NCBI RefSeq assembly: GCF_030013205.1
Contig: NZ_CP122648.1
Direction: 5' to 3' (one strand)
DNA from: Escherichia coli
GTDB taxonomy: Bacteria; Pseudomonadota; Gammaproteobacteria; Enterobacterales; Enterobacteriaceae
DNA length: 64,000 nucleotides
This document shows, piece by piece, positions 113-41,060 of this stretch. Every line of letters begins with the position of its first letter. Position 1 is the first letter of the stretch. Position numbers and translations under genes: made by a program. The notes beneath the pieces are model-generated. The model was not told the DNA's origin and ran no database searches. It worked only from the letters and a program-made list of their open reading frames with translations.

Positions 113-1723
113 TCAGGCTGATGCGCGTGACGCCAGCCACTGACGTAATTGTTTTTTCTCGACTTTCCCGACCGCCGTCAGCGGAAGTGAATCCACACAC
201 TCCACGCGATCCGGTAATTTAAATTCGGCAATACCCTGTTCACGCAGGAAACGACGCACCTGCACCGCGCGTAGAGGCTCTTTTACCACCAGATAAGCAC
301 AGCTTTTTTCGCCCATCAGCTCATCTTCCATGCTCACCAGTGCGGCGTAGATCACCGCCGGATGGCGCAGCAGCAGGTTTTCGATCTCTTCGGCAGCGAT
401 CTTCTCGCCGCCACGGTTGATCTGATCTTTCTCGCGCCCCTGCACGGTGATGTACCCCTCTGGATCAATAGAGATCAGATCACCAGAACAGTAAAAACCG
501 TTGGCATCAAAGGCGCTGGCATTGTGCTGCGGGCTTTTGTAATAGCCGCGGAAGGTGTACGGACCGCGCGTCATCAGGCGTCCGACTTCCCCTTGCGGCA
601 GTGGATTTCCTTCGGCATCGGCAACCCACACTTCATCGTCCGGACACATTGGATAGCCCTGGGTATGGATTATTTTCTCCGCGCTATCATCAAGTCGGGT
701 GTAGTTCACCAGTCCTTCCGCCATGCCGAATACCTGCTGTAACTGGCAGCCAATCTCTGCGGGAATACGCGCCGCAAGCGTGGCAGAAAGACGTGCACCA
801 CCGACCTGTAACAGTTTCAGCGAGGCAAGCTGCGCCCGGCTTTCGCCTTCGGTCAGCGCCTGTAACCACAGGCTGACTGCGGGTGGCACCAGCGCGGTGA
901 CGTTCACCTGATGTTTTTCAATCAATGGGAAGCAGAGCGTGGCGCTGGGGTCGGCAGCCAGAACGACAGTGCCGCCAGCGAGAAATACGCCCAGCGATCC
1001 TGGCGAACTCATGGCGTAGTTATGAGCCGCCGGGATCGCGCACAGGTAGCGTGTCTGTTGTGTGAACTGACAAATCTCGACGCTACGACGCACGCTGTAG
1101 TAGTAGTCGTTATGAGTGCGCGGGATCAGTTTCGGTGTGCCGGTGGTGCCGCCGGAAAGCTGGAAATAGGCCACTTCATCAGCAGGTGACGGCGTGGCAG
1201 TAAAATCCTCAGCCGGATGGTTAATCGCATCCTGCAAGTTATGCTCACCGCTGTCGTTGTGCAGTTGCACCACGCGAATGGAGGAATGCTCTGCAACAAA
1301 TGTATTGAGGAAATCATCTCCGCTAAACAGCGCATGCTGGCGATCGGCAATCAGTAACGCCGGTTCAATCTGGCTGGCATAGGCGTTCAGTTCACTACGC
1401 TGATGGCTGAACAGCGCCAGCACCGGCGCAACGCCCAGTTTCAGCAGTGCGAAAAAGGTAATGTAAAGTTCAGCGACGTTACCCAGTTGTACCAGCGCGG
1501 TTTCACCAGGTTTAATGCCCTGACGGCGTAAACTACACGCGAGGTTATCCGCCGCCTGATTCAGCTCTCGGTAACTCAACTGCCGCTCGCCGTCGATAAC
1601 CGCGATGCTGTCACTCGCAGCGTGGCGGGTCAGAATATCGGTCAGTGGCAAATCCTGCCAGTAGCCTTTTTCCCGATAGCGACGGGAAAACTCTTCCGGC
1701 CAGCGGGTGAATGGAATGCTCAT
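113..1723 (-). CDS. entE: 2,3-dihydroxybenzoate-AMP ligase EntE
   Basis: ORF 113..1729; translation from [12 protein letters not shown] recognised as EntE (536 aa, adenylation domain with SGGTTGTPK motif); start taken at the internal ATG. Confidence 0.95.
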
Positions 1724-1732
1724 CCTCACTCC

Positions 1733-2908
<1,176 letters not shown>

Positions 2909-2936
2909 ATCATCCTCCACAAAATGATAAAGGATT

Positions 2937-2957
2937 TAATAATGATTATCATTTATA
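2937..2957. promoter_or_regulatory. Fur box in the divergent entC / fepB promoter region
   Basis: Sequence aataatgattatcatttat closely matches the Fur consensus GATAATGATAATCATTATC; sits between divergent iron-regulated genes. Confidence 0.75.
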
Positions 2958-3096
2958 TTTTCGGTAGCTAACCTAAAAGCAAACGCGCACTATGTCAACT
3001 CTTGAGGTAACGCAATCTGCAACTCGGGGTTGCATCTGGTTGTGGTTACAATGAAAATGAGAAGCATTAACTTCATTAATAACAGGAAGCTGACTT

Positions 3097-4053
3097 GTGA
3101 GACTCGCCCCGCTCTACCGCAACGCCCTTCTATTAACAGGACTTTTGCTTTCAGGAATAGTCGCAGTTCAGGCCGCCGACTGGCCGCGTCAGATTACTGA
3201 CAGCCGGGGCACTCATACCCTGGAAAGCCAGCCGCAGCGTATTGTTTCCACCAGCGTCACCCTGACCGGCTCACTGCTGGCGATTGATGCTCCGGTGATC
3301 GCCAGCGGCGCGACCACGCCAAATAACCGCGTCGCGGATGACCAGGGCTTTTTACGCCAGTGGAGCAAGGTGGCGAAAGAACGCAAACTGCAACGGCTCT
3401 ATATCGGCGAACCGAGTGCAGAAGCCGTTGCCGCGCAAATGCCGGATCTGATTTTAATTAGCGCAACTGGCGGGGATTCGGCGCTGGCGCTGTATGATCA
3501 GCTTTCCACCATAGCCCCGACATTAATCATCAATTACGACGACAAAAGCTGGCAGGCGCTGTTAACGCAACTTGGCGAAATTACCGGGCATGAGAAACAA
3601 GCGGCAGAGCGGATTGCACAGTTTGATAAGCAACTGGCGGCGGCGAAAGAGCAAATCAAATTACCGCCGCAGCCGGTCACTGCCATTGTCTATACCGCCG
3701 CTGCACACAGTGCCAATCTCTGGACGCCGGAATCAGCACAAGGGCAGATGCTGGAACAACTCGGCTTTACGTTGGCGAAATTGCCCGCAGGGTTAAACGC
3801 CAGCCAAAGCCAGGGCAAACGCCATGACATCATTCAGCTTGGTGGAGAAAATCTGGCTGCAGGGTTAAATGGCGAGTCACTATTCCTGTTCGCCGGTGAT
3901 CAGAAAGATGCCGATGCGATTTATGCTAATCCGCTGCTCGCGCACCTGCCTGCAGTACAAAACAAGCAGGTTTATGCGCTGGGAACCGAGACGTTCCGTC
4001 TGGATTACTACAGCGCCATGCAAGTGCTGGAACGGCTTAAGGCGCTGTTTTAA
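3097..4053 (+). CDS. fepB: periplasmic ferric-enterobactin binding protein FepB
   Basis: 318-aa ORF with GTG start at 3097, signal peptide (…[10 protein letters not shown]) and recognised FepB sequence. Confidence 0.95.
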
Positions 4054-4056
4054 GCA

Positions 4057-5307
4057 TTAACTGTCGGACGCTGTCACCTGCGGCGGCGTCTGGCGAAAAC
4101 GCCGCAACTCCACCAGCACCAGCAATAACAACACGCCGATAATCAACAAACCAAAACCGCTCGCGCTTGCGGAAGCAACCGGTGTCATCATCGCGCCCAA
4201 ACCGCCCAGCAGCGCCGCGCCTATGGCATCACCCGTCACGTTTTGTGCCGTCCACAAACCGTTAATCCGCCCTAACATCGCTTCCGGGGTTTGCGTTTGC
4301 AGCATTGTATATTGCAGCAACGAACTAACCGCGCTCAGCCAGCCGAACAGCGCCAGACAAACCACGCCTAAAATCCACATCGGCATCAAGCCAAACAGCC
4401 CAATGGCGAGGAACGATCCCAGCGTGGAGAGCAGCATCAATAACCCTGGTCGCGCGCTATGTGCCAGCTTCCCGCTGGTTAACGCGCCAATAGCCGCGCC
4501 GAGCGGGATCGCCGCATAGAGAAAACCAATCTGTGCCGCCGACATCTGCCAGTTGTCAGCCAGCGCCGGATACAGTACCCGCACCGCGCTCGCCATCGTC
4601 AATAAACCACCCAACAGCGCAATCCCTCCTACCAGCGGGCTGGCGAGCAGAAAACGAAATCCTGCCAGTAATGATTTCAACGGATGCTCACGCGGCTGCG
4701 GTGGCGGTGGCAACGCCGGAAGGCTTAACAACGGTAGCAAGGTAATAAACGTGCCCGCCGCCGCCAGCCCGTAGTTCCAGGCTACGCCGCCAGTCGCCAG
4801 CAGTAAACCACCAATCATAGGCGAAATCACCGATCCCAGGCGCACAGTCAACATGGTGATCGCCCCGGCCTGCATTAAGTTTTCACGCCCTACCAGTGCA
4901 GGTGTCGCCGCCAGTAGCGCCGTAACGCCAAGTGATGCGAAAAAACCATCCCATAAACCAAGTAAATAGATTGCCAACAATGACGGCTCCGGCAGCAGTG
5001 CATTAAGGCACAGTCCAATGAAGCCAATGCCACAGGTGCCGCGCGCCAGCAAAATCACTTTTTTGCGTTCATAGCGATCCGCCAGCACACCGCCGACCAT
5101 CAGGCCAACAAACATCGCGCCGCCGGTCAGCGTCACCGAAAGCCCCACCTGCCAGGTAGAATGCGTCATCATCTGGATCTGCACCGGCACCGCGACGCCG
5201 AGCAAACCCAGAGACACAATTGAGATAAAACGAGCGAGGAATACTGCACGAAACGCCGGGTGCGTTTTCAACAGGCTGAGGTTAAGCAGCCAGGATTGTT
5301 TATTCAT
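4057..5307 (-). CDS. entS: enterobactin exporter EntS (MFS transporter)
   Basis: 416-aa polytopic membrane [30 protein letters not shown]… recognised as EntS/YbdA. Confidence 0.95.
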
Positions 5308-5380
5308 TACAATGCCTTGCCATCAAATATTTTAAATACCTATTTTTAGGCTGCACATGCTAACATATCCAAATAAGATC

Positions 5381-5405
5381 GATAACGATAATTAATTTCA
5401 TTATC
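5381..5405. promoter_or_regulatory. Fur box in the divergent entS / fepD promoter region
   Basis: gataacgataattaatttcattatc contains overlapping GATAAT/ATTATC Fur hexamers. Confidence 0.7.
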
Positions 5406-5417
5406 ATGGAAGTTCGT

Positions 5418-6422
5418 ATGTCTGGTTCTATTGCCGTGACACGCGCCATTGCCGTGCCCGGATTGCTGTTATTACTGATTATCGCGACGGCATTAAGCCT
5501 GCTCATTGGGGCAAAATCACTCCCCGCTTTCGTAGTGCTGGAGGCCCTCTCCGGCACCTGCCAGAGCGCCGACTGCACCATCGTGCTCGACGCGCGACTG
5601 CCGCGCACCCTTGCCGGTTTACTAGCCGGCGGTGCGCTTGGCCTTGCCGGGGCGTTGATGCAAACCCTCACCCGAAACCCACTTGCCGACCCCGGCTTGC
5701 TTGGTGTGAACGCCGGAGCCAGCTTTGCCATTGTGCTGGGTGCGGCGCTGTTTGGTTACTCATCCGCGCAGGAACAACTGGCGATGGCCTTCGCCGGGGC
5801 GCTGGTGGCCTCATTGATTGTTGCCTTTACCGGCAGCCAGGGCGGCGGGCAGTTAAGTCCGGTGCGTTTAACCCTGGCGGGCGTGGCACTGGCGGCGGTG
5901 CTGGAAGGGCTGACCAGCGGCATCGCCCTGCTTAATCCTGACGTCTACGATCAGTTGCGTTTCTGGCAAGCCGGTTCGCTGGATATTCGCAATCTACATA
6001 CCTTAAAAGTGGTGCTGATCCCGGTGCTGATCGCCGGAGCAACCGCACTATTACTGAGCCGCGCGCTGAACAGTTTAAGCCTCGGCAGTGACACCGCGAC
6101 GGCGCTGGGTAGTCGCGTGGCGCGCACACAGTTGATTGGTCTGCTGGCGATTACCGTGCTTTGTGGTAGTGCGACGGCGGTAGTTGGCCCGATTGCCTTT
6201 ATTGGCCTGATGATGCCGCACATGGCGCGCTGGCTGGTAGGTGCCGATCATCGCTGGTCGCTGCCCGTCACGCTACTCGCCACCCCTGCCCTGCTGCTGT
6301 TTGCCGATATCATCGGGCGGGTGATTGTGCCCGGCGAACTGCGCGTTTCTATAGTCAGTGCCTTTATTGGCGCACCGGTGCTGATCTTCCTCGTGCGACG
6401 TAAAACGCGAGGTGGCGCATGA
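5418..6422 (+). CDS. fepD: ferric-enterobactin ABC transporter permease FepD
   Basis: ORF 5406..6422; start chosen at MSGSIAVTR (334 aa); FecCD-family permease sequence. Confidence 0.93.
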   Translation: MSGSIAVTRAIAVPGLLLLLIIATALSLLIGAKSLPAFVVLEALSGTCQSADCTIVLDARLPRTLAGLLAGGALGLAGALMQTLTRNPLADPGLLGVNAGASFAIVLGAALFGYSSAQEQLAMAFAGALVASLIVAFTGSQGGGQLSPVRLTLAGVALAAVLEGLTSGIALLNPDVYDQLRFWQAGSLDIRNLHTLKVVLIPVLIAGATALLLSRALNSLSLGSDTATALGSRVARTQLIGLLAITVLCGSATAVVGPIAFIGLMMPHMARWLVGADHRWSLPVTLLATPALLLFADIIGRVIVPGELRVSIVSAFIGAPVLIFLVRRKTRGGA

Positions 6423-7411
6423 TTTACGTCTCTCGCCGATTAATCATCACCTGTTTGCTGCTAATTACCGCCTGTGTGGTTGCAGGTATCTGGGGATTAC
6501 GCAGCGGTACCGTCACGCTGGAAACCTCGCAGGTATTCGCCGCGCTGATGGGCGATGCGCCGCGCAGTATGACGATGGTGGTCACCGAATGGCGTTTACC
6601 ACGCGTGCTGATGGCGCTGTTGATTGGCGCGGCACTGGGCGTCAGCGGCGCGATTTTTCAGTCGCTGATGCGTAACCCGCTCGGTAGCCCTGACGTAATG
6701 GGCTTTAACACCGGGGCGTGGAGCGGCGTGCTGGTGGCGATGGTGCTGTTTGGTCAGGACCTGACGGCTATCGCGCTGGCAGCAATGGCGGGCGGCATTG
6801 TCACCTCGCTGCTGGTCTGGCTGCTCGCCTGGCGTAACGGCATCGACACCTTTCGGTTGATTATTATTGGTATCGGCGTTCGCGCCATGCTGGTGGCCTT
6901 TAATACCTGGCTGTTGCTGAAAGCGTCTTTAGAAACGGCGCTAACAGCGGGTTTGTGGAATGCCGGATCGCTCAACGGCCTGACGTGGGCAAAAACCTCG
7001 CCCTCCGCACCCATCATTATATTGATGCTCATTGCCGCCGCCTTGCTGGTGCGGCGGATGCGCTTGCTGGAGATGGGTGATGATACCGCATGTGCGCTGG
7101 GCGTCAGCGTCGAACGTTCGCGTCTGTTAATGATGCTGGTTGCAGTGGTGCTTACCGCTGCGGCAACGGCGCTTGCCGGGCCGATTTCTTTTATTGCTTT
7201 AGTCGCGCCGCACATTGCCCGACGCATTAGCGGCACCGTTCGCTGGGGGCTGACCCAGGCGGCGCTGTGCGGGGCGCTGTTACTGCTGGCGGCCGATCTC
7301 TGCGCCCAACAACTGTTTATGCCGTATCAACTTCCGGTTGGCGTCGTTACCGTCAGCCTCGGTGGTATTTACCTTATCGTCTTGTTAATTCAGGAGTCTC
7401 GCATAAAATGA
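6419..7411 (+). CDS. fepG: ferric-enterobactin ABC transporter permease FepG
   Basis: 330-aa ORF MIYVSRRLIITCLLLITACV…; start overlaps the fepD stop by 4 nt. Confidence 0.93.
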   Translation: MIYVSRRLIITCLLLITACVVAGIWGLRSGTVTLETSQVFAALMGDAPRSMTMVVTEWRLPRVLMALLIGAALGVSGAIFQSLMRNPLGSPDVMGFNTGAWSGVLVAMVLFGQDLTAIALAAMAGGIVTSLLVWLLAWRNGIDTFRLIIIGIGVRAMLVAFNTWLLLKASLETALTAGLWNAGSLNGLTWAKTSPSAPIIILMLIAAALLVRRMRLLEMGDDTACALGVSVERSRLLMMLVAVVLTAAATALAGPISFIALVAPHIARRISGTVRWGLTQAALCGALLLLAADLCAQQLFMPYQLPVGVVTVSLGGIYLIVLLIQESRIK

Positions 7412-8223
7412 CCGAATCAGTAGCCCGTTTGCGCGGCGAACAGTTAACCCTCGGATATGGCAAATATACCGTTGCAGAAAATCTGACTGTAGAAATACCT
7501 GATGGTCACTTCACGGCAATTATCGGGCCAAATGGCTGCGGTAAATCCACGTTACTGCGTACCTTAAGCCGCCTGATGACGCCTGCTCACGGGCATGTCT
7601 GGCTGGATGGTGAGCACATTCAACATTACGCCAGTAAAGAAGTTGCCCGGCGGATTGGCCTGTTGGCGCAAAACGCCACCACGCCGGGAGATATCACCGT
7701 GCAGGAGCTGGTGGCGCGTGGGCGTTACCCGCATCAACCGCTGTTTACCCGCTGGCGCAAAGAAGATGAAGAAGCGGTAACGAAAGCGATGCAGGCCACG
7801 GGAATCACTCATCTGGCAGGTCAAAGCGTGGATACCCTTTCTGGCGGACAACGCCAGCGAGCGTGGATCGCGATGGTGCTGGCCCAGGAAACGGCAATTA
7901 TGCTGCTCGATGAACCAACGACCTGGCTGGATATCAGTCATCAGATTGATCTCCTGGAACTGTTAAGCGAACTGAACCGCGAGAAAGGCTATACCCTGGC
8001 GGCGGTGCTGCACGATCTTAATCAGGCCTGTCGTTACGCCAGCCATTTGATTGCATTGCGGGAAGGGAAAATTGTTGCTCAGGGAGCGCCGAAGGAGATT
8101 GTCACTGCTGAATTGATCGAGCGCATTTATGGTCTGCGCTGCATGATTATTGACGTTCCGGTAGCCGGAACTCCGCTCGTGGTGCCGCTCGGACGAACGG
8201 CACCTTCAACTGCCAAGATTTAA
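7408..8223 (+). CDS. fepC: ferric-enterobactin ABC transporter ATPase FepC
   Basis: Start at MTESVARLRGEQ inside ORF 7267..8223 (271 aa); Walker A GPNGCGKST and ABC signature LSGGQRQR present. Confidence 0.95.
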   Translation: MTESVARLRGEQLTLGYGKYTVAENLTVEIPDGHFTAIIGPNGCGKSTLLRTLSRLMTPAHGHVWLDGEHIQHYASKEVARRIGLLAQNATTPGDITVQELVARGRYPHQPLFTRWRKEDEEAVTKAMQATGITHLAGQSVDTLSGGQRQRAWIAMVLAQETAIMLLDEPTTWLDISHQIDLLELLSELNREKGYTLAAVLHDLNQACRYASHLIALREGKIVAQGAPKEIVTAELIERIYGLRCMIIDVPVAGTPLVVPLGRTAPSTAKI

Positions 8224-9353
8224 ACTAAGTGCTCTTCCATCACGGCATCCTGTTTTCTGGATGCCATCGCATGGCGCAACAGCACGCCACCACAAGCCAC
8301 CATCCCGCCGATCATCGCAGAAAGGATCACAATAATCGCCTTACCCGGACCGTCTTTTTTCACTGGCAATGACGGGCTTAACTGATATTTAAACGGCGTA
8401 AAATTCACATCGTTGATATTTGCTTTTGTTAGCTGCTCAACAAGATACTGGCGATTACGTAATTCACCGTTCAGTTCCGCAACGTCAGTAACCGCTTTTT
8501 CAATTTCCAGTTTGCGTTCAATACCGTCTGCGCCGAGAGAAATAGAGAAATCGGGGTCGTCTTTAACAGCCTGACCATTACTGTAAACGGGCTTTTTAAT
8601 TCCTGCCGCGTTAGCAATGTCGAGTGAATAATTGAGGCGCTGAATGTTTGCATCAAGTTGATTTTTCATTTTAATGCGGTCCTGAGCCAGTTTTTCTTTT
8701 TCAAACTGGGTTTTAAGCTCCAGTCTATTGCGCTCATTTTCTATCGACTCTTTCACCACCAGAGCAGAGATATAATCGATATACCCGCTCAAAACGGTTT
8801 GCGCCTCTTCATTGGTTGGCGCGGTAAAACTTAGCGTCCAGGAGGTATAAAGTGACGGTTCATCTTTTTTCTTACTGGCATTGTCATCAACCGCTTTCAT
8901 TTTTTCGCTCAATGCGACAATTGCGCGATGCAAATCCAGTTCGTCGATTTTCGCCTCTTTTAATTGGTCCATCACATAAGGTGTTGAGCGCAGGTACTCT
9001 TCCAGCAAGCTAACCGACTGAAACTTCTTGATAAACAGGTTAAATGCTTCTGTACGATCAATTTTGATATCCAGATCCAGCACTCGAAGCTTAGTGAATG
9101 TTTTCTCCAGCTCTTGCCACTGAACAGGTTCTGGAGGCGTGACAACCGCCGCGCTGGTCCATTTTTGCGGCAGGATGAAAGAGATCAGCAAGCCTGCGCA
9201 GGCAAACGCAAAAATGACCGCCATGACCGTTTTTTTGGCCCGCCATAAAACTGCGATTAGATTAAGTAAATCAATTTCATTATTACTGGGCGACGCCAGA
9301 GGATACTCAGGAAAATGAGCGTCACTTCCCTGTTTAATATTCAGTGATGACAT
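8220..9353 (-). CDS. fepE: polysaccharide co-polymerase FepE (O-antigen chain length regulator, Wzz family)
   Basis: ORF 8220..9404; start chosen at MSSLNIKQGSDAHF (377 aa). Confidence 0.93.
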   Translation of the reverse strand: MSSLNIKQGSDAHFPEYPLASPSNNEIDLLNLIAVLWRAKKTVMAVIFAFACAGLLISFILPQKWTSAAVVTPPEPVQWQELEKTFTKLRVLDLDIKIDRTEAFNLFIKKFQSVSLLEEYLRSTPYVMDQLKEAKIDELDLHRAIVALSEKMKAVDDNASKKKDEPSLYTSWTLSFTAPTNEEAQTVLSGYIDYISALVVKESIENERNRLELKTQFEKEKLAQDRIKMKNQLDANIQRLNYSLDIANAAGIKKPVYSNGQAVKDDPDFSISLGADGIERKLEIEKAVTDVAELNGELRNRQYLVEQLTKANINDVNFTPFKYQLSPSLPVKKDGPGKAIIVILSAMIGGMVACGGVLLRHAMASRKQDAVMEEHLV

Positions 9354-31850: not shown

Positions 31851-33288
31851 GCCATTTCAGCGCCCGTTTTCGCTGGCAACCCGCCTGACCTTTTTTATCA
31901 GCCTGGCCACCATCGCGGCGTTTTTCGCCTTTGCCTGGATCATGATTCACTCGGTAAAAGTGCATTTTGCTGAGCAGGATATTAATGATTTAAAAGAGAT
32001 TAGCGCCACACTCAAGCGCGTTCTTAATCATCCCGAAGAGACACAAGCCCGACGCTTAATGACGCTGGAAGATATCGTCAGTGGTTATTCCAATGTGTTG
32101 ATTTCCCTGGCAGATAGCCAGGGTAAAACGGTGTATCACTCCCCCGGTGCGCCGGATATCCGCGAGTTTACGCGTGACGCCATACCCGATAAAGACACGC
32201 GGGGCGGCGAGGTGTATCTCCTTTCCGGCCCGACGATTATGATGCCGGGCCACGGTCACGGGCATATGGAACACAGCAACTGGCGGATGATTAACTTGCC
32301 GGTTGGCCCGTTGGTGGACGGCAAACCGATTTATACGCTCTACATCGCGCTTTCGATCGATTTTCATCTTCATTACATAAATGATTTGATGAATAAACTT
32401 ATTATGACCGCATCGATCATCAGCATCCTGATCGTCTTTATCGTGCTGTTGGCGGTACATAAAGGTCACGCACCGATCCGCAGCGTCAGCCGTCAAATCC
32501 AGAACATTACCTCGAAAGATCTCGACGTTCGCCTTGACCCGCAGACCGTGCCGATTGAGCTGGAACAGCTGGTACTGTCGTTCAACCATATGATCGAGCG
32601 TATTGAGGATGTCTTTACTCGCCAGTCCAATTTCTCAGCGGATATCGCTCACGAAATTCGTACACCAATTACGAATCTCATAACGCAAACCGAAATCGCC
32701 CTCAGCCAGTCACGCAGCCAGAAGGAGCTGGAAGATGTGCTCTACTCTAATCTCGAAGAGCTGACGCGAATGGCGAAAATGGTCAGCGATATGCTGTTTC
32801 TCGCCCAGGCCGATAACAACCAGCTAATCCCCGAAAAGAAAATGCTCAACCTGGCGGATGAAATCGGCAAAGTGTTCGATTTTTTCGAGGCGCTAGCGGA
32901 AGATCGCGGCGTGGAACTGCGGTTTGTTGGTGACGAGTGTCAGGTTGCGGGCGATCCGCTGATGCTGCGTCGGGCGTTAAGCAACCTGCTTTCGAACGCC
33001 CTGCGTTATACGCCGCCCGGAGAGGCGATTGTAGTGCGCTGCCAGACGGTCGATCACCAGGTGCAAGTTTCCGTCGAAAACCCCGGTACGCCCATTGCGC
33101 CCGAGCACTTACCGCGATTGTTTGACCGTTTCTACCGCGTTGACCCCTCCCGCCAGCGAAAAGGCGAAGGTAGCGGTATTGGGCTGGCGATAGTGAAATC
33201 GATTGTTGTCGCGCATAAAGGCACGGTTGCAGTAACGTCAGATGCTCGGGGGACAAGGTTTGTGATTATGCTGCCGGAGAGAGAGTGA
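31840..33288 (+). CDS. cusS: copper-sensing histidine kinase CusS
   Basis: Start chosen at [19 protein letters not shown] inside ORF 31828..33288, overlapping the cusR stop; HisKA/HATPase motifs. Confidence 0.93.
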
Positions 33289-33644
33289 TTATTAAGTTCA
33301 AATTCAGGGCGTGGTGCATCACCTCCTGGTATTGTTGATCAACAAATTAGAGAAAAACTTATTAAACATATGAAATATCGAAGGCTTTTATTTTTCAAAG
33401 TTTCACGAGATGTTTGTATATGAAACTTAGTTAAATCTGTGTTTCTTCCAATTGTAGATCACAATGCCCTTTCTAAATTTTCATCGTTATAAACAAGCCA
33501 TCTATCATATAAAGCAATGAATAATTTAATCGCGATTAATCATCATTAATTGTTATATTATTCACTCAATCTATTTATCAAGTGAATTTGATAAATTCCT
33601 AATTTAAAATATCCACTATTGAGCCAGTATTTAACAACGTTAAG

Positions 33645-33672
33645 ATGTGCAATGTGCAATGTGCAATGTGCA
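33645..33672. repeat. tandem heptanucleotide repeat (ATGTGCA)x4
   Basis: atgtgcaatgtgcaatgtgcaatgtgca read directly in the AT-rich region upstream of vgrG. Confidence 0.9.
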
Positions 33673-34038
33673 GATCATGTTATCAGGGTGGAGCGGTAGC
33701 ATATATTTCTTATGCAATCATTCATTTTAATAATGTTAATTGGATTATTTATTGCTGTGAATAAAAATATATTATGAATATTGGTTTAACTTTGCGTTTT
33801 TGTTACTCGTTGTGATATGCGTACCTGTCCTGAATAACGCCAAGAAACAAGAGGTTGAGCTTGTGATTATTTTTTTGACTGAACAGACACCCGTTTCTGT
33901 AAAGTAATATTTAAACAAAATTCTCACATAACCATAGCATTTTCTGTTCCTTCCCTAATAACGTCTGAAGTCGTCCCGCTTATCACATTATCCGCAGTTG
34001 TACGGTACGGATCATTATTCATTTTACTGGAGGTTGCT

Positions 34039-35925
34039 ATGTCAACCGGATTACGTTTCACACTGGAAGTGGACGGCCTGCCGCCGGATGCTTTTGCGGT
34101 GGTTTCCTTTCATCTGAACCAGTCACTCTCTTCGCTCTTTTCCCTCGATCTCTCCCTGGTCAGCCAGCAGTTTCTCTCCCTTGAATTTGCGCAGGTGCTG
34201 GACAAAATGGCCTACCTGACGATATGGCAGGGCGATGAAGTACAGCGCCGGGTGAAAGGCGTGGTGACCTGGTTTGAACTCGGGGAGAACGACAAAAACC
34301 AGATGCTGTACAGCATGAAGGTGCACCCGCCGCTGTGGCGTGCCGGTCTGCGCCAGAACTTCCGTATCTTCCAGAACGAGGACATCAAAAGCATCCTCGG
34401 CACGATGTTGCAGGAAAACGGGGTGACCGAATGGAGTCCGCTGTTCAGCGAGCCGCATCCTTCCCGTGAGTTTTGTGTCCAGTACGGTGAGACTGATTAC
34501 GATTTCCTGTGCCGGATGGCGGCGGAGGAAGGCATCTTCTTTTATGAGGAGCATGCTTACAAAAGTACCGACCAGAGCCTGGTGCTGTGCGACACAGTCC
34601 GCCATCTGCCCGAATCTTTTGAAATCCCATGGAACCCGAACACCCGTACCGAGGTGAGCACCCTCTGCATCAGCCAGTTCCGCTACAGCGCACAAATCCG
34701 CCCTTCTTCCGTGGTGACCAAAGACTACACCTTTAAACGCCCCGGCTGGGCCGGACGTTTTGAACAGGAAGGCCAGCACCAGGACTACCAGCGCACGCAG
34801 TATGAAGTGTATGACTACCCCGGACGTTTCAAGGGTGCCCACGGGCAGAACTTTGCCCGCTGGCAGATGGACGGCTGGCGAAACAATGCAGAAACCGCGC
34901 GGGGAATGAGTCGTTCGCCGGAGATATGGCCGGGACGACGAATTGTGCTGACGGGGCATCCGCAGGCGAACCTGAACCGGGAATGGCAGGTGGTGGCAAG
35001 TGAACTGCACGGCGAACAGCCACAGGCGGTGCCAGGACGGCAGGGAGCGGGGACGGCGCTGGAGAACCATTTTGCGGTGATCCCGGCAGACAGAACATGG
35101 CGACCACAGCCGTTGCTGAAACCGCTGGTCGACGGCCCGCAGAGCGCTGTCGTGACAGGACCGGCAGGCGAGGAAATCTTCTGCGACGAACATGGTCGCG
35201 TGCGGGTGAAGTTCAACTGGGACCGTTATAACCCGGCAGACCAAGACAGTTCGTGCTGGATCCGTGTGGCACAGGCGTGGGCAGGCACCGGTTTTGGCCA
35301 CCTGGCGATACCACGTGTGGGTCAGGAAGTCATTGTGGACTTCCTCAACGGCGATCCGGACCAGCCGATCATTATGGGGCGCACCTACCACCAGGAAAAC
35401 CGCCCCCCCGGCAGCCTGCCGGGAACAAAGACGCAGATGACCATCCGCTCCAAAACGTACATGGGCAGCGGATTTAATGAGCTGAAGTTTGATGATGCGA
35501 CAGGGAGAGAACAGGTCTACATCCACGCGCAGAAGAACATGGATACCGAAGTGCTCAACGACCGTACCACCACCGTAAAACACGATCACCGCGAAACCGT
35601 AAAAAATGACCAGACGGTCACGATCCAGGAAGGTAACCGCCTTCTTACGGTGGAAAAAGGCCACAAGATCACCGGAGTACTGAAAGGGTCTTTATCTGAG
35701 GATGTCTTTCAGGACAGAGGCACGATTGCCGGTTCGGTGCATGTTGACGCTGTAAACAATGGTGGCGAAGGCGACGGTATACAGGCTTATACGGCGATTA
35801 AGGAAATTTTGCTGGCCGTGGAGGAAAGCAAAATTGCGCTGACGCCGGATGGCATTCAGCTACAGGTCGGGGAATCGACGGTACCGGATCACAGGTGTCA
35901 GTCACACCGACGGGATCCGGCTTAA
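34039..35925 (+). CDS. vgrG: VgrG (Rhs-element Vgr protein / T6SS spike), 3' end replaced out of frame at a deletion junction near 35880
   Basis: 628-aa ORF with gp27/gp5-like VgrG sequence (…GRVRVKFNWDRYNPADQDSSCWIRVAQAWAG…IALTPDGIQLQVGESTV) ending in an unrelated 15-aa tail PDHRCQSHRRDPA. Confidence 0.8.
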   Translation: MSTGLRFTLEVDGLPPDAFAVVSFHLNQSLSSLFSLDLSLVSQQFLSLEFAQVLDKMAYLTIWQGDEVQRRVKGVVTWFELGENDKNQMLYSMKVHPPLWRAGLRQNFRIFQNEDIKSILGTMLQENGVTEWSPLFSEPHPSREFCVQYGETDYDFLCRMAAEEGIFFYEEHAYKSTDQSLVLCDTVRHLPESFEIPWNPNTRTEVSTLCISQFRYSAQIRPSSVVTKDYTFKRPGWAGRFEQEGQHQDYQRTQYEVYDYPGRFKGAHGQNFARWQMDGWRNNAETARGMSRSPEIWPGRRIVLTGHPQANLNREWQVVASELHGEQPQAVPGRQGAGTALENHFAVIPADRTWRPQPLLKPLVDGPQSAVVTGPAGEEIFCDEHGRVRVKFNWDRYNPADQDSSCWIRVAQAWAGTGFGHLAIPRVGQEVIVDFLNGDPDQPIIMGRTYHQENRPPGSLPGTKTQMTIRSKTYMGSGFNELKFDDATGREQVYIHAQKNMDTEVLNDRTTTVKHDHRETVKNDQTVTIQEGNRLLTVEKGHKITGVLKGSLSEDVFQDRGTIAGSVHVDAVNNGGEGDGIQAYTAIKEILLAVEESKIALTPDGIQLQVGESTVPDHRCQSHRRDPA

Positions 35926-38900
35926 ACTGACGTACCACGCCAGCGGCTACCTGAAAGCCATTCACCGCACGGATAACGGCATACAGACGCTGGCGACCTA
36001 CGAACAGGATGCGCGGGGGCGGCTGACAGAAGCGGATGCGCGGCTGGACTACCACCTGTTTTATGAGTACGACGCTGCGGACCGGATCATCCGCTGGTCC
36101 GATAACGACCAGACGTGGAGCCGTTTCACCTACGATGAACAGGGCCGGTGCGTGAATGTCACCGGGGCGGAGGGCTATTACAACGCCACGCTGGACTATG
36201 GTGACGGCTGCACCACCGTGACGGACGGCAAGGGCATTCACCGTTATTACTATGATCCTGACGGCAATATTCTGCGGGAAGCAGCGCCGGACGGCAGCAC
36301 CACCATGTATGAATGGGATGAATTCCATCACCTGCTGGCCCGTCACTCCCCTGCCGGGCGGGTGGAGAAATTTGAATACAACGCCGCACACGGTCAGTTA
36401 AGCCGTTACACGGCGGCAGACGGCGCGGAGTGGCAGTACCGCTATGATGAGCGCGGCCTGCTCAGCAACATCACCGACCCTGCCGGGCAGACGTGGACAC
36501 AGCAGTGTGATGAACGCGGCCTGCCGGTAAGTCTGGTGTCGCCACAGGGCGAAGAGACCCGGCTGGCATACACCGCTCAGGGGCTGCTGTCGGGAATATT
36601 CCGCCAGGATGAACGGCGTCTGGGCATAGAGTACGACCACCACAACCGGCCGGAAACACTCACCGACGTGATGGGCCGTGAACACCACACCGAATACAGC
36701 GGTCACGACCTGCCGGTGAAGATGCGCGGCCCCGGCGGTCAGTCAGTGCGGTTACAGTGGCAGCAGCACCATAAACTGAGCGGCATTGAACGTGCTGGAA
36801 CCGGCGCGGAAGGATTCCGCTACGACCGCCACGGCAACCTGCTGGCCTGGACGGACGGCAACGGCGTTGTCTGGACAATGGAATACGGCCCGTTTGATTT
36901 GCCGGTGGCGCGAACGGACGGTGAAGGCCACCGCTGGCAGTACCGCTACGATAAAGACACGCTGCAACTGACAGAAGTCATTAACCCGCAGGGTGAGTCA
37001 TATCTTTATGTTCTGGATAACTGCGGCCGGGTGACGGAAGAGCATGACTGGGGCGGCGTGGTCTGGCGTTACCGCTATGACGCCGATGGCCTGTGTACCG
37101 CCAGGGTCAACGGCCTGGAGGAAACCATCCTCTACAGCCGGGACGCCGCAGGCCGCCTGGCAGAAGTCATCACGCCGGAAGGCAAAACGCAGTATGCGTA
37201 TGACAAATCCGGCAGGCTTACGGGTATCTTCAGCCCGGACGGCACATCACAGCGCACCGGCTATGACGAACGCGGGCGGGTGAATGTCACCACTCAGGGC
37301 CGACGGGCCATTGAATACCACCACCCCGATGAACACACCGTCATCCGCTGTATCCTGCCACCGGAAGATGAACGCGACAGACACCCCGGTGAATCCCTGC
37401 TGAAAACCACGTACCGCTACAACGCCGCCGGAGAACTGACGGAGGTTATCCTGCCGGGGGATGAGACGCTGACGTTCAGCCGTGATGAGGCAGGACGTGA
37501 AGTGCTCCGGCACAGTAACCGGGGTTTTGCCTGTGAACAGGGCTGGAATGCAGCCGGCCAGTCTGTCAGCCAGCGCGCCGGATTTTTCCCGGAAGAAGCC
37601 ACATGGGGCGGGCTGGTTCCGTCACTGGCGCGGGAATACCGTTATGACAGCGCGGGCAATGTGTCGGCTGTCACCAGCCGGGAAGATTACGGACGGGAAA
37701 CACGGCGGGAATACCGGCTGGACCGGAACGGCCAGGTCACGGCGGTGACAGCCTCAGGCACCGGGCTGGGCTATGGCGAAGGCGATGAGTCCTATGGCTA
37801 TGACAGCTGCGGCTACCTGAAGGCGCAGTCTGCGGGCTGGCACCGGATAAGTGAAGAGACTGACCAGTATGCCGGAGGCCACCGGCTGAAACAGGCCGGA
37901 AACACGCAGTATGACTATGACGCCGCAGGCCGGATGGTCAGCCGCACCAGACACCGTGACGGCTATCGCCCGGAAACAGAGCGGTTCCGGTGGGACAGCC
38001 GTGACCAGCTGACCGGGTATTGCAGCGCACAGGGTGAGCAGTGGGAATACCGCCACGACGCCAGCGGCAGACGAACAGAGAAACGCTGCGACCGGAAGAA
38101 AATCCGCTTCACGTATCTGTGGGACGGCGACAGTATTGCGGAAATCCGGGAATACCGCGATGATAAACTGTACAGCGTACGGCACCTGGTGTTTAACGGC
38201 TTTGAGCTGATAAGCCAGCAGTTCAGCCGGGTACGGCAGGCGCATCCGTCGGTGGCCCCGCAGTGGGTGACACGGACGAATCATGCGGTGAGCGACCTGA
38301 CGGGCCGTCCGCTGATGCTCTTTAACAGTGAAGGTAAAACCGTCTGGCGACCGGGACAGACCAGCCTGTGGGGGCTGGCACTCAGCCTGCCCGCAGACAC
38401 CGGCTACCCGGACCCGCGCGGGGAACTGGACCCGGAAGCCGACCCCGGCCTGCTGTATGCGGGACAGTGGCAGGATGCAGAATCCGGGCTGTGCTATAAC
38501 CGGTTCCGGTATTACGAGCCGGAAACCGGGATGTACCTGGTGAGTGATCCGCTGGGGTTGCTGGGGGGTGAGCAGACTTACCGGTATGTGCCAAATCCGT
38601 GTGGGTGGGTTGATCCGCTGGGATTGGCTGCAAGTTCTAAAATCAGCAGTTTGATGGACTATATTGGCGATGGTCGTCGTGTTAGTGGGCATACGGGTTT
38701 CCTGGATGGGGTTCGTTTATCACGTAGTCAAATAAACAATATTGCTAAAGAAATGGAGAAGCTAGGAATTAAAGTAATAAGGAAAGCAGATAAATATTTG
38801 CCACCAAATGCTAGGGCAGCTTTTGATTATGGCCTTCGCAATATTTATCTTAGGAAAAATGCCACCTTATATGAGGTGTATCATGAAGTGATTCATGCTA

Positions 38901-39079
38901 AGCAATTTGCGAAAATTGGACGAGAAGCATACGAAGCACTAGGACGTTTATCTAGGGAGGAACACGTTCTAAATGAAATATTAAAAAGTAAAAATTTATT
39001 CAATGAAGCGGAAATAGCTCATGCCATAAAATATGTTGAGGGATTGAGAGAAAAATTCATGATGGGACTAATAAATTGA
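35849..39079 (+). CDS. Rhs protein remnant: YD-repeat core (5'-truncated, no PAAR/N-terminal region) plus a 150-aa variable C-terminal toxin domain
   Basis: 1076-aa ORF rich in YD repeats, core-end motif YVPNPCGWVDPLGL at about 38585-38626, then a low-GC C-terminal tail containing HEVIH; the only ATG is a fortuitous one inside vgrG-derived sequence. Confidence 0.8.
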   Translation: MAFSYRSGNRRYRITGVSHTDGIRLKLTYHASGYLKAIHRTDNGIQTLATYEQDARGRLTEADARLDYHLFYEYDAADRIIRWSDNDQTWSRFTYDEQGRCVNVTGAEGYYNATLDYGDGCTTVTDGKGIHRYYYDPDGNILREAAPDGSTTMYEWDEFHHLLARHSPAGRVEKFEYNAAHGQLSRYTAADGAEWQYRYDERGLLSNITDPAGQTWTQQCDERGLPVSLVSPQGEETRLAYTAQGLLSGIFRQDERRLGIEYDHHNRPETLTDVMGREHHTEYSGHDLPVKMRGPGGQSVRLQWQQHHKLSGIERAGTGAEGFRYDRHGNLLAWTDGNGVVWTMEYGPFDLPVARTDGEGHRWQYRYDKDTLQLTEVINPQGESYLYVLDNCGRVTEEHDWGGVVWRYRYDADGLCTARVNGLEETILYSRDAAGRLAEVITPEGKTQYAYDKSGRLTGIFSPDGTSQRTGYDERGRVNVTTQGRRAIEYHHPDEHTVIRCILPPEDERDRHPGESLLKTTYRYNAAGELTEVILPGDETLTFSRDEAGREVLRHSNRGFACEQGWNAAGQSVSQRAGFFPEEATWGGLVPSLAREYRYDSAGNVSAVTSREDYGRETRREYRLDRNGQVTAVTASGTGLGYGEGDESYGYDSCGYLKAQSAGWHRISEETDQYAGGHRLKQAGNTQYDYDAAGRMVSRTRHRDGYRPETERFRWDSRDQLTGYCSAQGEQWEYRHDASGRRTEKRCDRKKIRFTYLWDGDSIAEIREYRDDKLYSVRHLVFNGFELISQQFSRVRQAHPSVAPQWVTRTNHAVSDLTGRPLMLFNSEGKTVWRPGQTSLWGLALSLPADTGYPDPRGELDPEADPGLLYAGQWQDAESGLCYNRFRYYEPETGMYLVSDPLGLLGGEQTYRYVPNPCGWVDPLGLAASSKISSLMDYIGDGRRVSGHTGFLDGVRLSRSQINNIAKEMEKLGIKVIRKADKYLPPNARAAFDYGLRNIYLRKNATLYEVYHEVIHAKQFAKIGREAYEALGRLSREEHVLNEILKSKNLFNEAEIAHAIKYVEGLREKFMMGLIN

Positions 39080-39327
39080 TAAAACATAACAAAATAACTA
39101 TCGAAATGGCTCTTGACTTGGCTCGGCGTGAGTTAGAGTTAAGGGAAATTCCTTATATTAAAAATAGTCTACATGCCAATTACAGCTATAAATCTATTAG
39201 TATTGGTTCTAAGCAAGGTTGGTTAATTTCAGCGAAATTAAAAGTCCCTGAAACTTTTGAGCCTGATATGATATTTATTGAGATATCTGACCCAGAAGGT
39301 TTTATTAATATTCCTGATGTATTATAA
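39076..39327 (+). CDS. candidate Rhs immunity protein (small acidic protein encoded directly after the rhs CT)
   Basis: 83-codon ORF overlapping the rhs stop (TTGA); low-GC like the CT domain; start ambiguous (TTG at 39076 or ATG at 39106). Confidence 0.55.
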   Translation: MIKHNKITIEMALDLARRELELREIPYIKNSLHANYSYKSISIGSKQGWLISAKLKVPETFEPDMIFIEISDPEGFINIPDVL

Positions 39328-39441
39328 ACTACGTTAGAGGTTTTGTTATAAGGTAATCGGTTTCTTTACAGACCGCTGGCGTACATCGCACAGAGGCTGC
39401 TAACAGGGATATTCCTGCCTGGATGAACGCAAGGCAAGATC

Positions 39442-39753
39442 ATGGAAATAGTGATATACATCACTATTTCCATCCTGATTTTAGCTATCGCATTAATAAA
39501 ACAGCGGATGTTAGCCAATATCGAAACCAGTAACCCGTATCACGCCCAGTACATCCTGCGCCGCCGCGATGATTACCTGGTGCTGTTCGACCGTGATGCC
39601 CTGAGCTGCCGCTTCTTTTATGACGCCTTTCCGGGAATGCGTCTGCGCCACCAGGTGACCGGCGATACCGACGATGACCGCCTGGCACACAGCCCCGCAG
39701 ACCGGATGTATACAGGGAAAGATCATCAGAAGTACACTTTTTGTACTAAATAA
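39442..39753 (+). CDS. hypothetical small protein, possibly a chimeric or orphan fragment
   Basis: 103-codon ORF: hydrophobic AT-rich N-terminus joined to a GC-rich 3' portion (39530-39720) that looks displaced from another gene. Confidence 0.3.
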   Translation: MEIVIYITISILILAIALIKQRMLANIETSNPYHAQYILRRRDDYLVLFDRDALSCRFFYDAFPGMRLRHQVTGDTDDDRLAHSPADRMYTGKDHQKYTFCTK

Positions 39754-39779
39754 TTCACATTTTATGTTTAAAAATTGAG

Positions 39780-41060
39780 ATATTCCTCATTACCTGAAGC
39801 TGTTTTTTATTGCTTATACATGATCAAATACTCCTTACATAATTAAGGAGAACAAAATGGAACTTAAAAAATTGATGGAACATATTTCTATTATTCCCGA
39901 TTACAGACAAGCCTGGAAAGTGGAACATAAATTATCGGATATTCTATTGTTGACTATTTGTGCCGTTATTTCTGGTGCGGAAGATTGGGAAGATATAGAG
40001 GATTTTGGGGAAACACATCTCGATTTTTTGAAGCAATATGGTGATTTTGAAAATGGTATTCCTGTTCACGATACCATTGCCAGAGTTGTATCCTGTATCA
40101 GTCCTGCAAAATTTCACGAGTGCTTTATTAACTGGATGCGTGACTGCCATTCTTCAGATGATAAAGACGTCATTGCAATTGATGGAAAAACGCTCCGGCA
40201 CTCTTATGACAAGAGTCGCCGCAGGGGAGCGATTCATGTCATTAGTGCGTTCTCAACAATGCACAGTCTGGTCATCGGACAGATCAGGACGGATGAGAAA
40301 TCCAATGAGATTACAGCTATCCCAGAACTTCTTAACATGCTGGATATTAAAGGAAAAATCATCACAACTGATGCGATGGGTTGCCAGAAAGATATTGCAG
40401 AGAAGATACAAAAACAGGGAGGTGATTATTTATTCGCGGTAAAAGGAAACCAGGGGCGGCTAAATAAAGCCTTCGAGGAAAAATTTCCGCTGAAAGAATT
40501 AAATAATCCAGAGCATGACAGTTACGCAATGAGTGAAAAGAGTCACGGCAGAGAAGAAATCCGTCTTCACATTGTTTGCGATGTCCCTGATGAACTTATT
40601 GATTTCACGTTTGAATGGAAAGGTCTGAAGAAATTATGCGTGGCAGTCTCCTTTCGGTCAATAATAGCAGAACAAAAGAAAGAGCCAGAAATGACGGTCA
40701 GATATTATATTAGTTCTGCTGATTTAACCGCAGAGAAGTTCGCCACAGCAATCCGAAACCACTGGCACGTGGAGAATAAGCTGCACTGGCGTCTGGACGT
40801 GGTAATGAATGAAGACGACTGCAAAATAAGAAGAGGAAATGCAGCAGAATTATTTTCAGGGATACGGCACATCGCTATTAATATTTTGACGAATGATAAG
40901 GTATTCAAGGCAGGGTTAAGACGTAAGATGCGAAAAGCAGCCATGGACAGAAACTATCTGGCGTCAGTCCTTGCGGGGAGCGGGCTTTCGTAATCTTGCC
41001 CTGCCTGCTCACCTCCTCCAGGCACTTCCACTACATGATGACCTGCTCGGTGCCACCGCT
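39780..41060 (+). mobile_element. H-repeat (ISAs1-family) insertion element; boundaries approximate
   Basis: Contains the 378-aa H-repeat-associated transposase ORF typical of Rhs-linked H-rpt elements; terminal repeats not resolved. Confidence 0.5.
39857..40993 (+). CDS. H-repeat-associated protein / ISAs1-family transposase
   Basis: 378-aa [54 protein letters not shown]… recognised as the YhhI/YdcC/YbfD H-rpt protein family. Confidence 0.85.

Follow-up and report, generated by a model that had tools for sequence, protein, structure and literature searches.

The toxin tail of the truncated rhs gene and the small gene that overlaps its stop form a toxin-immunity pair that is already known: the toxin family has had a name since 2012, the E. 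coli pair was reported in 2017 and it was later re-described in silico. With high confidence, we read the locus in the window (the whole stretch of 64,000 nucleotides that was analysed) as a vgrG-eagR-rhs island carrying a known Tox-MPTase4 tip (Rhs-CT1) and its cognate immunity gene CTI1, in which delivery of the toxin has probably been lost and immunity probably remains. The finding is real but ordinary and has small value as a discovery. The features of the locus are listed below by window coordinates and strand.

34039..35883, + strand: vgrG (tssI) remnant without its 3′ end; the ORF continues out of frame to 35925
35849-39079, + strand: rhs ORF from the ORF list; the remnant has 1076 codons
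35881..35883, no strand: deletion junction, 3 nt common to both flanks, from BLAST against the intact O104:H4 locus (L009)
35884..38626, + strand: rhs core (YD-repeat shell) remnant, frame open, GC 0.616, with the demarcation motif …PNPCGWVDPLGL at its end
38627..39079, + strand: C-terminal toxin domain and stop, Tox-MPTase4 (PF15640) by Pfam and the published Rhs-CT1 by identity to O104:H4
38822..38857, + strand: F66-D67 (38822-38827) and R76-K77 (38852-38857), the Tox-MPTase4 signatures F[DN] and [RK] (PMC3482391)
38882-38896, + strand: HEVIH (H86, E87, H90; tail residues 86-90, in frame), predicted zinc-binding/catalytic motif
38954..38965, + strand: R110-E111-E112-H113, of which R110, E111 and H113 are invariant in an alignment of 13 homologues
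39076..39327, + strand: immunity gene of 83 codons (published CTI1), TTG start, with TTGA common to it and the rhs stop
39442..39473, + strand: hairpin with a perfect 14-bp stem and then a T-rich tail, 3′ of the immunity gene; terminator-like by sequence
39531..39710, + strand: rhs fragment of 180 nt, 91.7% identical to the rhs 5′ part lost from the main copy
39857..40993, + strand: ISEc1 (ISAs1-family, 'H-repeat') transposase at the end of the rhs island, before nfrB

A known toxin family at the Rhs tip

The rhs core ends with …YVPNPCGWVDPLGL, encoded at 38585-38626, and the tail begins right after WVDPLGL at 38626 (the Rhs PxxxxDPxGL demarcation), a C-terminal placement as in polymorphic toxins. 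Exactly 150 codons follow (38627-39076) before the stop TGA at 39077-39079. The whole window has a GC content of 0.509; the core remnant lies above this at 0.616, the tail (0.366) and the small ORF (0.313) below it. HEVIH is the sole HExxH within the tail. Reading the sequence at these coordinates confirmed what the original prediction had said of the core-end motif (about 38585-38626), the collapse in GC content after the core (measured here as 0.62 to 0.37), the tail of 150 residues and the position of HEVIH at 38882-38896. Two long minus-strand ORFs, 37754-38692 within rhs and 34123-35664 within vgrG, were rejected as shadows of the GC-rich coding sequence on the other strand.

The tail matched the Pfam model Tox-MPTase4 (PF15640) over its full length (E = 8.2e-34, 116.8 bits, model positions 1-132 of 132, tail residues 15-143). 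This is polymorphic toxin metallopeptidase family 4, which Zhang et al. 2012 (PMC3482391) defined and classed with the zincin-like metallopeptidases, listing the motifs F[DN], [RK] and HExxH; the definition already cited an E. coli Rhs, and an association with the T6SS was stated for E. coli. With a full-length HMM match, all three motifs and a position C-terminal to RHS repeats, the tail is a typical member that differs in nothing substantive from the family. NCBI already names the product 'zincin-like metallopeptidase toxin domain-containing protein'. On this sequence evidence, the earlier functional reading, an Rhs whose C-terminal toxin was swapped for one of HExxH metallopeptidase type, appears to have been right. 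The sole NCBIfam match of the tail was a chance-level hit to leucyl aminopeptidase (E = 0.04, far under the curated cut-off), and searches of the PDB by sequence, with single sequences and profiles of both proteins, returned chance matches (E at least 0.07) and no solved relative.

Word-indexed protein searches yielded mainly E. coli fragments, and a profile search brought seven further distant toxins. Conservation of the HExxH motif had been proposed as a check, and H86, E87 and H90 proved invariant in the 13 aligned homologues, at identities down to 37%; in the same alignment F66 was invariant and R76 was conserved in at least 90%. E111 lies 21 residues past H90, matching the classical gluzincin spacing (a conserved Glu some 20 or more residues beyond the second His), which makes it the likely third zinc ligand, with H113 likewise invariant. 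The AF2 model of the tail (pLDDT 86.6) was compared by Foldseek. Minimal zincins (Wss1/SprT/ArdC-type and the minigluzincins selecase and abylysin), which are likewise small and carry, downstream of an HExxH helix, an acidic or His ligand, were the only enzyme families that recurred among its weak structural matches; a distant relation of Tox-MPTase4 to Wss1 was already remarked on by Zhang et al. 2012 (PMC3482391).

The immunity gene and the published pair

The toxin tail is identical to the intact O104:H4 copy at 149 of 150 residues and the immunity protein at all 83. Rhs-CT1/CTI1 of E. coli STEC004 was reportedly presented as a T6SS antibacterial effector–immunity pair by Ma et al. in 2017, in Environ Microbiol 19:345. 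Reviews describe T6SS-dependent antibacterial activity of Rhs-CT1, toxicity of its tail and neutralisation by CTI1 (PMC6730261, PMC6099711), and a preprint (10.1101/2024.03.05.583533) equates the O104:H4 proteins with STEC004 Rhs-CT1/CTI1 and calls them already characterised. Our identity to Rhs-CT1/CTI1 was thus measured against the O104:H4 copy, and the step to STEC004 (AOM81335) is made through this preprint. At the same chromosomal site, O104:H4 carries vgrG, DcrB/EagR, a 1620-aa PAAR-Rhs and the immunity gene (AAF13_16115/16120, WP_001289062.1/WP_001299578.1); the site between cusS and nfrB, the downstream rhs fragment and ISEc1 are shared with the window.

We confirmed from the sequence the predicted ORF of 83 codons at 39076-39327, which overlaps the rhs stop by TTGA. 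Its description as acidic holds only mildly (pI 5.6; 12 D+E against 10 K+R). Other starts have been called, namely ATG 39106 (73 aa) and, by NCBI, TTG 39118 (69 aa). The first 10 residues are conserved among homologues of 83-85 aa, position 11 is not Met in one homologue, and a diverged locus (L003) keeps the TTG/TTGA overlap between rhs and immunity ORF. These homologues support the 83-codon TTG model, coupled to the rhs stop, better than the 69-codon call.

The assignment as cognate immunity gene, made originally from its position, agrees with its linkage to the toxin across relatives and with the deposited name of the exact 83-aa sequence, 'Immunity protein of metallopeptidase 4 toxin'. In L003, whose pair is 63-66% identical, a PAAR-Rhs-MPTase4 protein is followed by an 83-aa ORF, and immunity homologues at 42-44% identity lie directly 3′ of MPTase4 domains with HEMTH or HEVTH. 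The order of toxin and small ORF therefore recurs in pairs diverged to 42-66% identity, and together with the invariant HExxH in 13 homologues this argues that the feature is not due to chance. CTI1-type proteins are a small family (about a dozen 50%-identity clusters, 78-85 aa) with no curated model, for which reason over a thousand genomes have the gene annotated as 'hypothetical protein'. A 1509-aa repeat protein (P0030) with eight stretches matching the immunity query was set aside as a low-complexity chance match to a eukaryote-like protein.

Neither Pfam nor NCBIfam contained a match to the immunity protein, alone or as a 15-member alignment. Its AF2 model (pLDDT 88.9) may resemble PepSY, a fold in which a helix packs on an antiparallel sheet; the PepSY HMM (PF03413) matched neither the protein nor any of the 15 aligned homologues, and the profile of the immunity protein found no PepSY chain in the PDB. 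The fold to which the model is likened comprises M4 peptidase propeptide inhibitors, YpeB, YpmB and FoxB. PepSY-containing propeptides restrain thermolysin-family proteases. We tentatively propose, as a minority possibility, that CTI1-type immunity proteins may inhibit a minimal gluzincin toxin in PepSY-like fashion, by closing off its active-site cleft. If true, a protease-prodomain fold would have been reused for interbacterial immunity in a way that has gone unrecognised; in the literature searched, we found no paper linking PepSY to T6SS immunity against metallopeptidases.

Loss of the delivery parts

BLAST against the intact O104:H4 locus aligned window positions 33001-35883 with L009 1157-4025 and 35881-41500 with L009 6255-11872. 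Compared to O104:H4, 2229 bp are absent, comprising the vgrG 3′ end, eagR/DcrB and the first ~1.66 kb (~555 codons) of rhs including PAAR, which bears out the original prediction that the rhs 5′ end is deleted. Strain K_EC180 is 100% identical, and there vgrG bears the NCBI annotation 'TssI/VgrG, missing C-terminus'; NCBI treats vgrG and rhs as partial pseudogenes. The 180-nt rhs fragment downstream is also an NCBI partial pseudogene, and its translation matches the Rhs of L003.

From an intact locus, the EagR chaperone would load PAAR-Rhs onto VgrG and the T6SS would fire the complex, after which the toxin would be cut off behind DPLGL and act in the recipient cell. There it would most likely work as a small zinc endopeptidase, with H86 and H90 holding the metal, E87 as catalytic base and E111 as the likely third ligand. 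Its target is most likely cytoplasmic, because the immunity protein has no signal peptide (nor a hydrophobic segment; maximum KD19 0.85). The immunity protein is expected to bind the toxin, and sibling cells would be protected by this binding. Loading on the T6SS requires PAAR with an upstream vgrG and eagR (DUF1795/DcrB). The O104:H4 locus and L003 have all three, whereas in the window all are deleted or truncated, so that the copy lacks the T6SS-deliverable features of Rhs-CT1. With the VgrG C-terminus, EagR and the PAAR/N-terminal part of Rhs gone, the toxin can probably be neither mounted nor delivered. The original description of the module as intact accordingly holds for the tail and the immunity gene and does not extend to the delivery parts. 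As judged from its sequence, the window copy is the remnant of a deliverable effector and not a functional one. The immunity gene is probably the sole functional remainder and would protect the strain from the many E. coli with an intact copy.

Other displaced copies have been described in silico. Both rhsG (z0702) of O157:H7 EDL933, previously assigned to PF15640, and the orphan Rhs-MPTase4 of STEC O22:H8 (Ec154_03866/67) carry the same module on an rhs without PAAR. The O157 module was pushed downstream by another Rhs tail, whereas that in the window was truncated by an internal vgrG-rhs deletion.

Competing readings and retention in E. coli

The original prediction had held that the proteins were not assignable to a named family and that the pair may be undescribed. 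This would agree with the failure of the immunity protein to match a Pfam or NCBIfam model, with the finding that only 12 representative clusters among the 1.84 billion searched match it, and with the fact that Zhang et al. 2012 (PMC3482391) gave no immunity family for Tox-MPTase4. However, the HMM search, which had been set beforehand as the refutation test, placed the tail in PF15640 end to end, and the claim of novelty therefore fails; the pair is named Rhs-CT1/CTI1 in the literature, and the immunity sequence has an exact database entry that bears a functional name. The reading is already refuted for the toxin and, with only a curated HMM still absent for the immunity protein, has practically no probability left. 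An alternative explanation of the HExxH domain is that it is not a protease at all but hydrolyses a non-protein substrate in a metal-dependent manner, or binds and blocks its target. We found no report of a substrate or of proteolytic activity of MPTase4 in the accessible literature, the fold matches to zincins were weak, and the best aligned of them, ArdC and Spartan SprT, are DNA-associated enzymes. We nevertheless consider this unlikely, given that the HExxH residues are invariant and are followed by an invariant Glu at gluzincin spacing, that the family was placed among the zincin-like metallopeptidases (Zhang et al. 2012, PMC3482391), and that the recognisable enzyme families among the highest-ranking Foldseek matches are all zinc peptidases, weak as the individual matches are. 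The MPTase4 family is a reasonable target for biochemical work on substrate and structure.

It is also conceivable that translation from an internal start, e.g. ATG 35849, still yields a truncated Rhs and that the pair serves as an intracellular addiction (toxin-antitoxin-like) module stabilising the island. The 1076-codon remnant is free of frameshifts and stops, the toxin tail is undamaged with its motifs intact, and the translationally coupled TTGA overlap is retained, all of which would fit such a role. A promoter scan of the + strand over 35500-39900, however, found no promoter-like site, including ahead of the immunity gene (counts were not above those of shuffled sequence), the remnant is a pseudogene according to NCBI and the N-terminal part of Rhs is absent. 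Moreover, other lineages carry the same module after rhs fragments that are frameshifted or are 444-aa orphans, in keeping with passive retention of displaced modules. Only 26 of the 5426 complete E. coli genomes have the junction as one contiguous stretch, so that the deletion may simply be recent. Taken together, we regard an addiction role as very unlikely and prefer the reading of a remnant effector with a retained immunity gene.

Overall, the module was found in 1152 of the 5426 complete E. coli genomes at ~99% identity or more, and the cassette of toxin, immunity gene and spacer (1.2 kb) is nearly invariant. Separately from the possible mode of inhibition, and just as tentatively, recombination may recently have spread the cassette through E. 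coli, with the immunity gene as the main reason for its retention. This gene had no substitutions in five diverse genomes, whatever the state of rhs; the 444-aa orphan copy of O157:H7 SS52, for example, is followed by an identical immunity gene. Roughly one in five complete E. coli genomes retains an identical immunity gene whether or not the toxin is deliverable, which bears on who kills whom in gut competition.

Identity of the toxin-immunity pair

The locus in the window is a degraded copy of an already known module, in which a 5'-truncated rhs gene ends in a 150-aa toxin tail (residues numbered within the tail) and is directly followed by a small immunity gene. We confirmed that the core end, tail, HEVIH motif and small ORF lie exactly where the original prediction had placed them.

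Features of the locus (window positions and strand)
35849-39079, +: rhs ORF, encoding the Rhs core, the C-terminal 150 codons and a TGA stop
35881-35883 (context 34039-39079): deletion junction, truncated vgrG joined to 5'-truncated rhs, with eagR and the PAAR region gone
38585-38626, +: motif ending the Rhs core (…YRYVPNPCGWVDPLGL), read from the sequence
38882-38896, +: HEVIH, the sole HExxH of the tail
39076-39327, +: immunity gene, 83 codons, TTG start; TTGA common to the rhs stop
39442-39473, +: palindrome ATGGAAATAGTGATATACATCACTATTTCCAT, perfect 14-bp stem, 4-nt loop and T-rich tail, about 115 nt past the immunity stop
39531-39710, +: rhs fragment of 180 nt, 91.7% identity to the rhs 5' region deleted from the main copy
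39857-40993, +: ISEc1 (ISAs1-family 'H-repeat') transposase, just 3' of the 180-nt rhs fragment

The core remnant has a GC content of 0.616, against 0.366 for the tail, 0.313 for the next ORF and 0.509 for the window as a whole. Two antisense ORFs, 37754-38692 (-; 312 aa) within rhs and 34123-35664 (-; 513 aa) within vgrG, were rejected as genes, being shadow ORFs of the kind common in GC-rich coding regions.

The toxin tail matched the complete Pfam model Tox-MPTase4 (PF15640; positions 1-132 of 132, E = 8.2e-34), and the NCBI pipeline names the rhs product 'zincin-like metallopeptidase toxin domain-containing protein'. The family was defined by Zhang et al. 2012 with the signature F[DN], [RK], HExxH, and includes an E. 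coli Rhs member for which T6SS delivery was considered probable (PMC3482391). Across 13 toxin homologues, with identity down to 37%, F66, H86, E87, H90, R110, E111 and H113 were invariant and R76 was kept in at least 90%. Since E111 lies 21 residues C-terminal of H90, the classical gluzincin spacing, it is likely the third metal ligand. An AlphaFold2 model built from the same alignment was confident (pLDDT 86.6, pTM 0.82); in it, three long helices come after a small sheet, and the HExxH lies on helix 81-97.

At the same site (cusS-nfrB), the O104:H4 genome carries an intact locus comprising vgrG, a DcrB-related (EagR) gene, a 1620-aa Rhs (WP_001289062.1), a small gene (WP_001299578.1), an rhs fragment and ISEc1. 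The window toxin tail differs from that Rhs at one residue (I149T), while the immunity protein is identical (83/83 residues). A 2024 preprint groups the O104:H4 genes AAF13_16115/16120 with AOM81335 and cti1 of strain STEC004 as an Rhs-MPTase4 effector with an 'already characterized' immunity protein (10.1101/2024.03.05.583533), and the preprint also describes a truncated copy of Rhs-MPTase4 in another STEC strain. According to two reviews that cover Ma et al. 2017, Rhs-CT1 has an MPTase4 domain, T6SS-dependent antibacterial activity and CTI1 as its partner (PMC6730261, PMC6099711). The window pair would thus correspond to STEC004 Rhs-CT1/CTI1, an indirect identification reached through the O104:H4 proteins and the preprint. 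Another paper assigns EDL933 rhsG (z0702) to PF15640, without PAAR (PMC7216683). The original prediction was right to interpret the tail as an HExxH metallopeptidase-type toxin with an immunity gene; its suggestion that the pair might be undescribed, which by its own criterion would fall on a match to a characterised family, is refuted by the Tox-MPTase4 assignment and the published Rhs-CT1/CTI1 pair.

The immunity gene and its diverged relatives

The start of the immunity gene has been called at TTG 39118 by NCBI (WP_001299578.1; 69 aa) and at ATG 39106 by other callers (73 aa). The 83-codon model from TTG 39076 is the best supported, because homologues of 83-85 aa keep the N-terminal ten residues and position 11 is Ile, not Met, in one homologue. 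This corrected start is worth recording, as is an immunity family without any curated model: no Pfam or NCBIfam model matched the protein, and when 1.84 billion representatives were scanned exhaustively with HMMER, only 12 clusters reached E <= 0.001, nearly all of 78-85 aa. RefSeq labels the protein 'hypothetical', UniRef holds a functional name, and the exact 83-aa sequence is publicly deposited as 'Immunity protein of metallopeptidase 4 toxin'. The ORF had been described as acidic, which was overstated (pI 5.6, 12 acidic and 10 basic residues). No hydrophobic segment was found in its sequence, which points to the toxin acting in the cytoplasm. Its fold is tentatively PepSY-like, which we treat as a lead only. 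The similarity list for its model has fungalysin and vibriolysin propeptides lower down and cystatin-like folds at similar scores, and family-model and profile searches gave no PepSY affinity at the sequence level.

The linkage of toxin and immunity gene is conserved across divergence. Locus L003 carries a vgrG fragment, a DcrB/EagR gene, a 1614-aa PAAR-Rhs-Tox-MPTase4 gene and an 83-aa immunity homologue with the TTG start and TTGA overlap seen in the window (66% identity between immunity proteins, 63% between toxin tails). Immunity homologues at 42-44% identity sit a few bases 3' of Tox-MPTase4 domains with HEMTH or HEVTH. In L005 (1-801), L006 (3-740) and L004 (2-670), such domains follow N-terminal regions without the Rhs demarcation motif, each with an immunity homologue behind it, so other delivery scaffolds carry the pair as well.

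Two further loci were observed. Positions 6500-15300 of L002 (metagenome contig ERZ27238671 k111_6418) hold about 15 small ORFs arrayed on one strand with no toxin gene among them, including two diverged immunity paralogues (8001-8252, TTG start; 8485-8736), which looks like an orphan poly-immunity island. In L007 (307-924), the gene 5' of a 29%-identity immunity homologue opens like Tox-MPTase4 (…GARPVSGSTGYLNGARMSKSEL…) and loses its frame before the HExxH region, probably a decayed toxin next to a retained immunity gene.

Possible cassette spread and the truncated locus

We compared the low-GC cassette of toxin, immunity gene and spacer (38627-39856) with five other E. coli genomes (L009-L013).

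Differences between the window and the five genomes
nfrB, 2238 nt: 42-44 differences (about 2%)
rhs core: 2-6% difference
toxin tail, 450 nt: 0-2 differences
immunity gene, 252 nt: 0 differences
non-coding spacer, 529 nt: 1-2 differences, in 4/5 genomes

The rhs copy was intact in one genome, frameshifted at full length in another, an orphan fragment of about 444 aa in two (in one of these it follows another main Rhs tail) and, in the fifth, a frameshifted orphan that closes an rhs array; the encoded immunity protein is the same in all five. The uniformity extends to silent and non-coding sites, which suggests that the cassette spread recently by horizontal recombination and was not kept constant by purifying selection alone. 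In L010 (E. coli O157:H7 SS52; 1176-8201) and L013 (1-8201), the same locus holds a main Rhs with another tail and, after it, the displaced and orphaned MPTase4 module, a layout that illustrates C-terminal displacement, the MPTase4 pair always being last before ISEc1.

Compared with O104:H4, the window lacks 2229 bp, namely the last ~57 nt of vgrG, the entire eagR and ~1.66 kb from the 5' end of rhs, and NCBI annotates both vgrG and rhs as partial. The toxin-immunity module occurs in 1152 of 5426 complete E. coli genomes, nearly always at 99% identity or above. Only 26 of the 5426 have a contiguous junction, which among the matches listed occurred only in swine strains (K_EC180, O139:H1 W13-16). 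The window is chromosomal E. coli DNA, and over positions 38500-39500 it matches strains of swine ETEC and O139:H1, K_EC180 among them, at 100% identity.

At intact loci, EagR would load PAAR-Rhs onto VgrG before the T6SS fires, and the tail, freed after DPLGL, would act as a small zinc endopeptidase on a putative substrate, probably cytoplasmic, unless neutralised by binding of the immunity protein. The window strain probably can no longer deliver the toxin, and its locus would most likely serve as a putative immunity gene against Rhs-CT1-armed E. coli. A less likely alternative is that the remnant rhs and immunity gene may keep a residual intracellular toxin-antitoxin-like role, since the remnant ORF remains open; a scan of 35500-39900 found no promoter-like site on the + strand. 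Downstream of this putative immunity gene, the palindrome lies where the low-GC spacer meets the GC-rich rhs fragment; it is a candidate terminator or recombination boundary. The arrangement of rhs fragment and ISEc1 is shared with 4/5 of the other genomes sampled.
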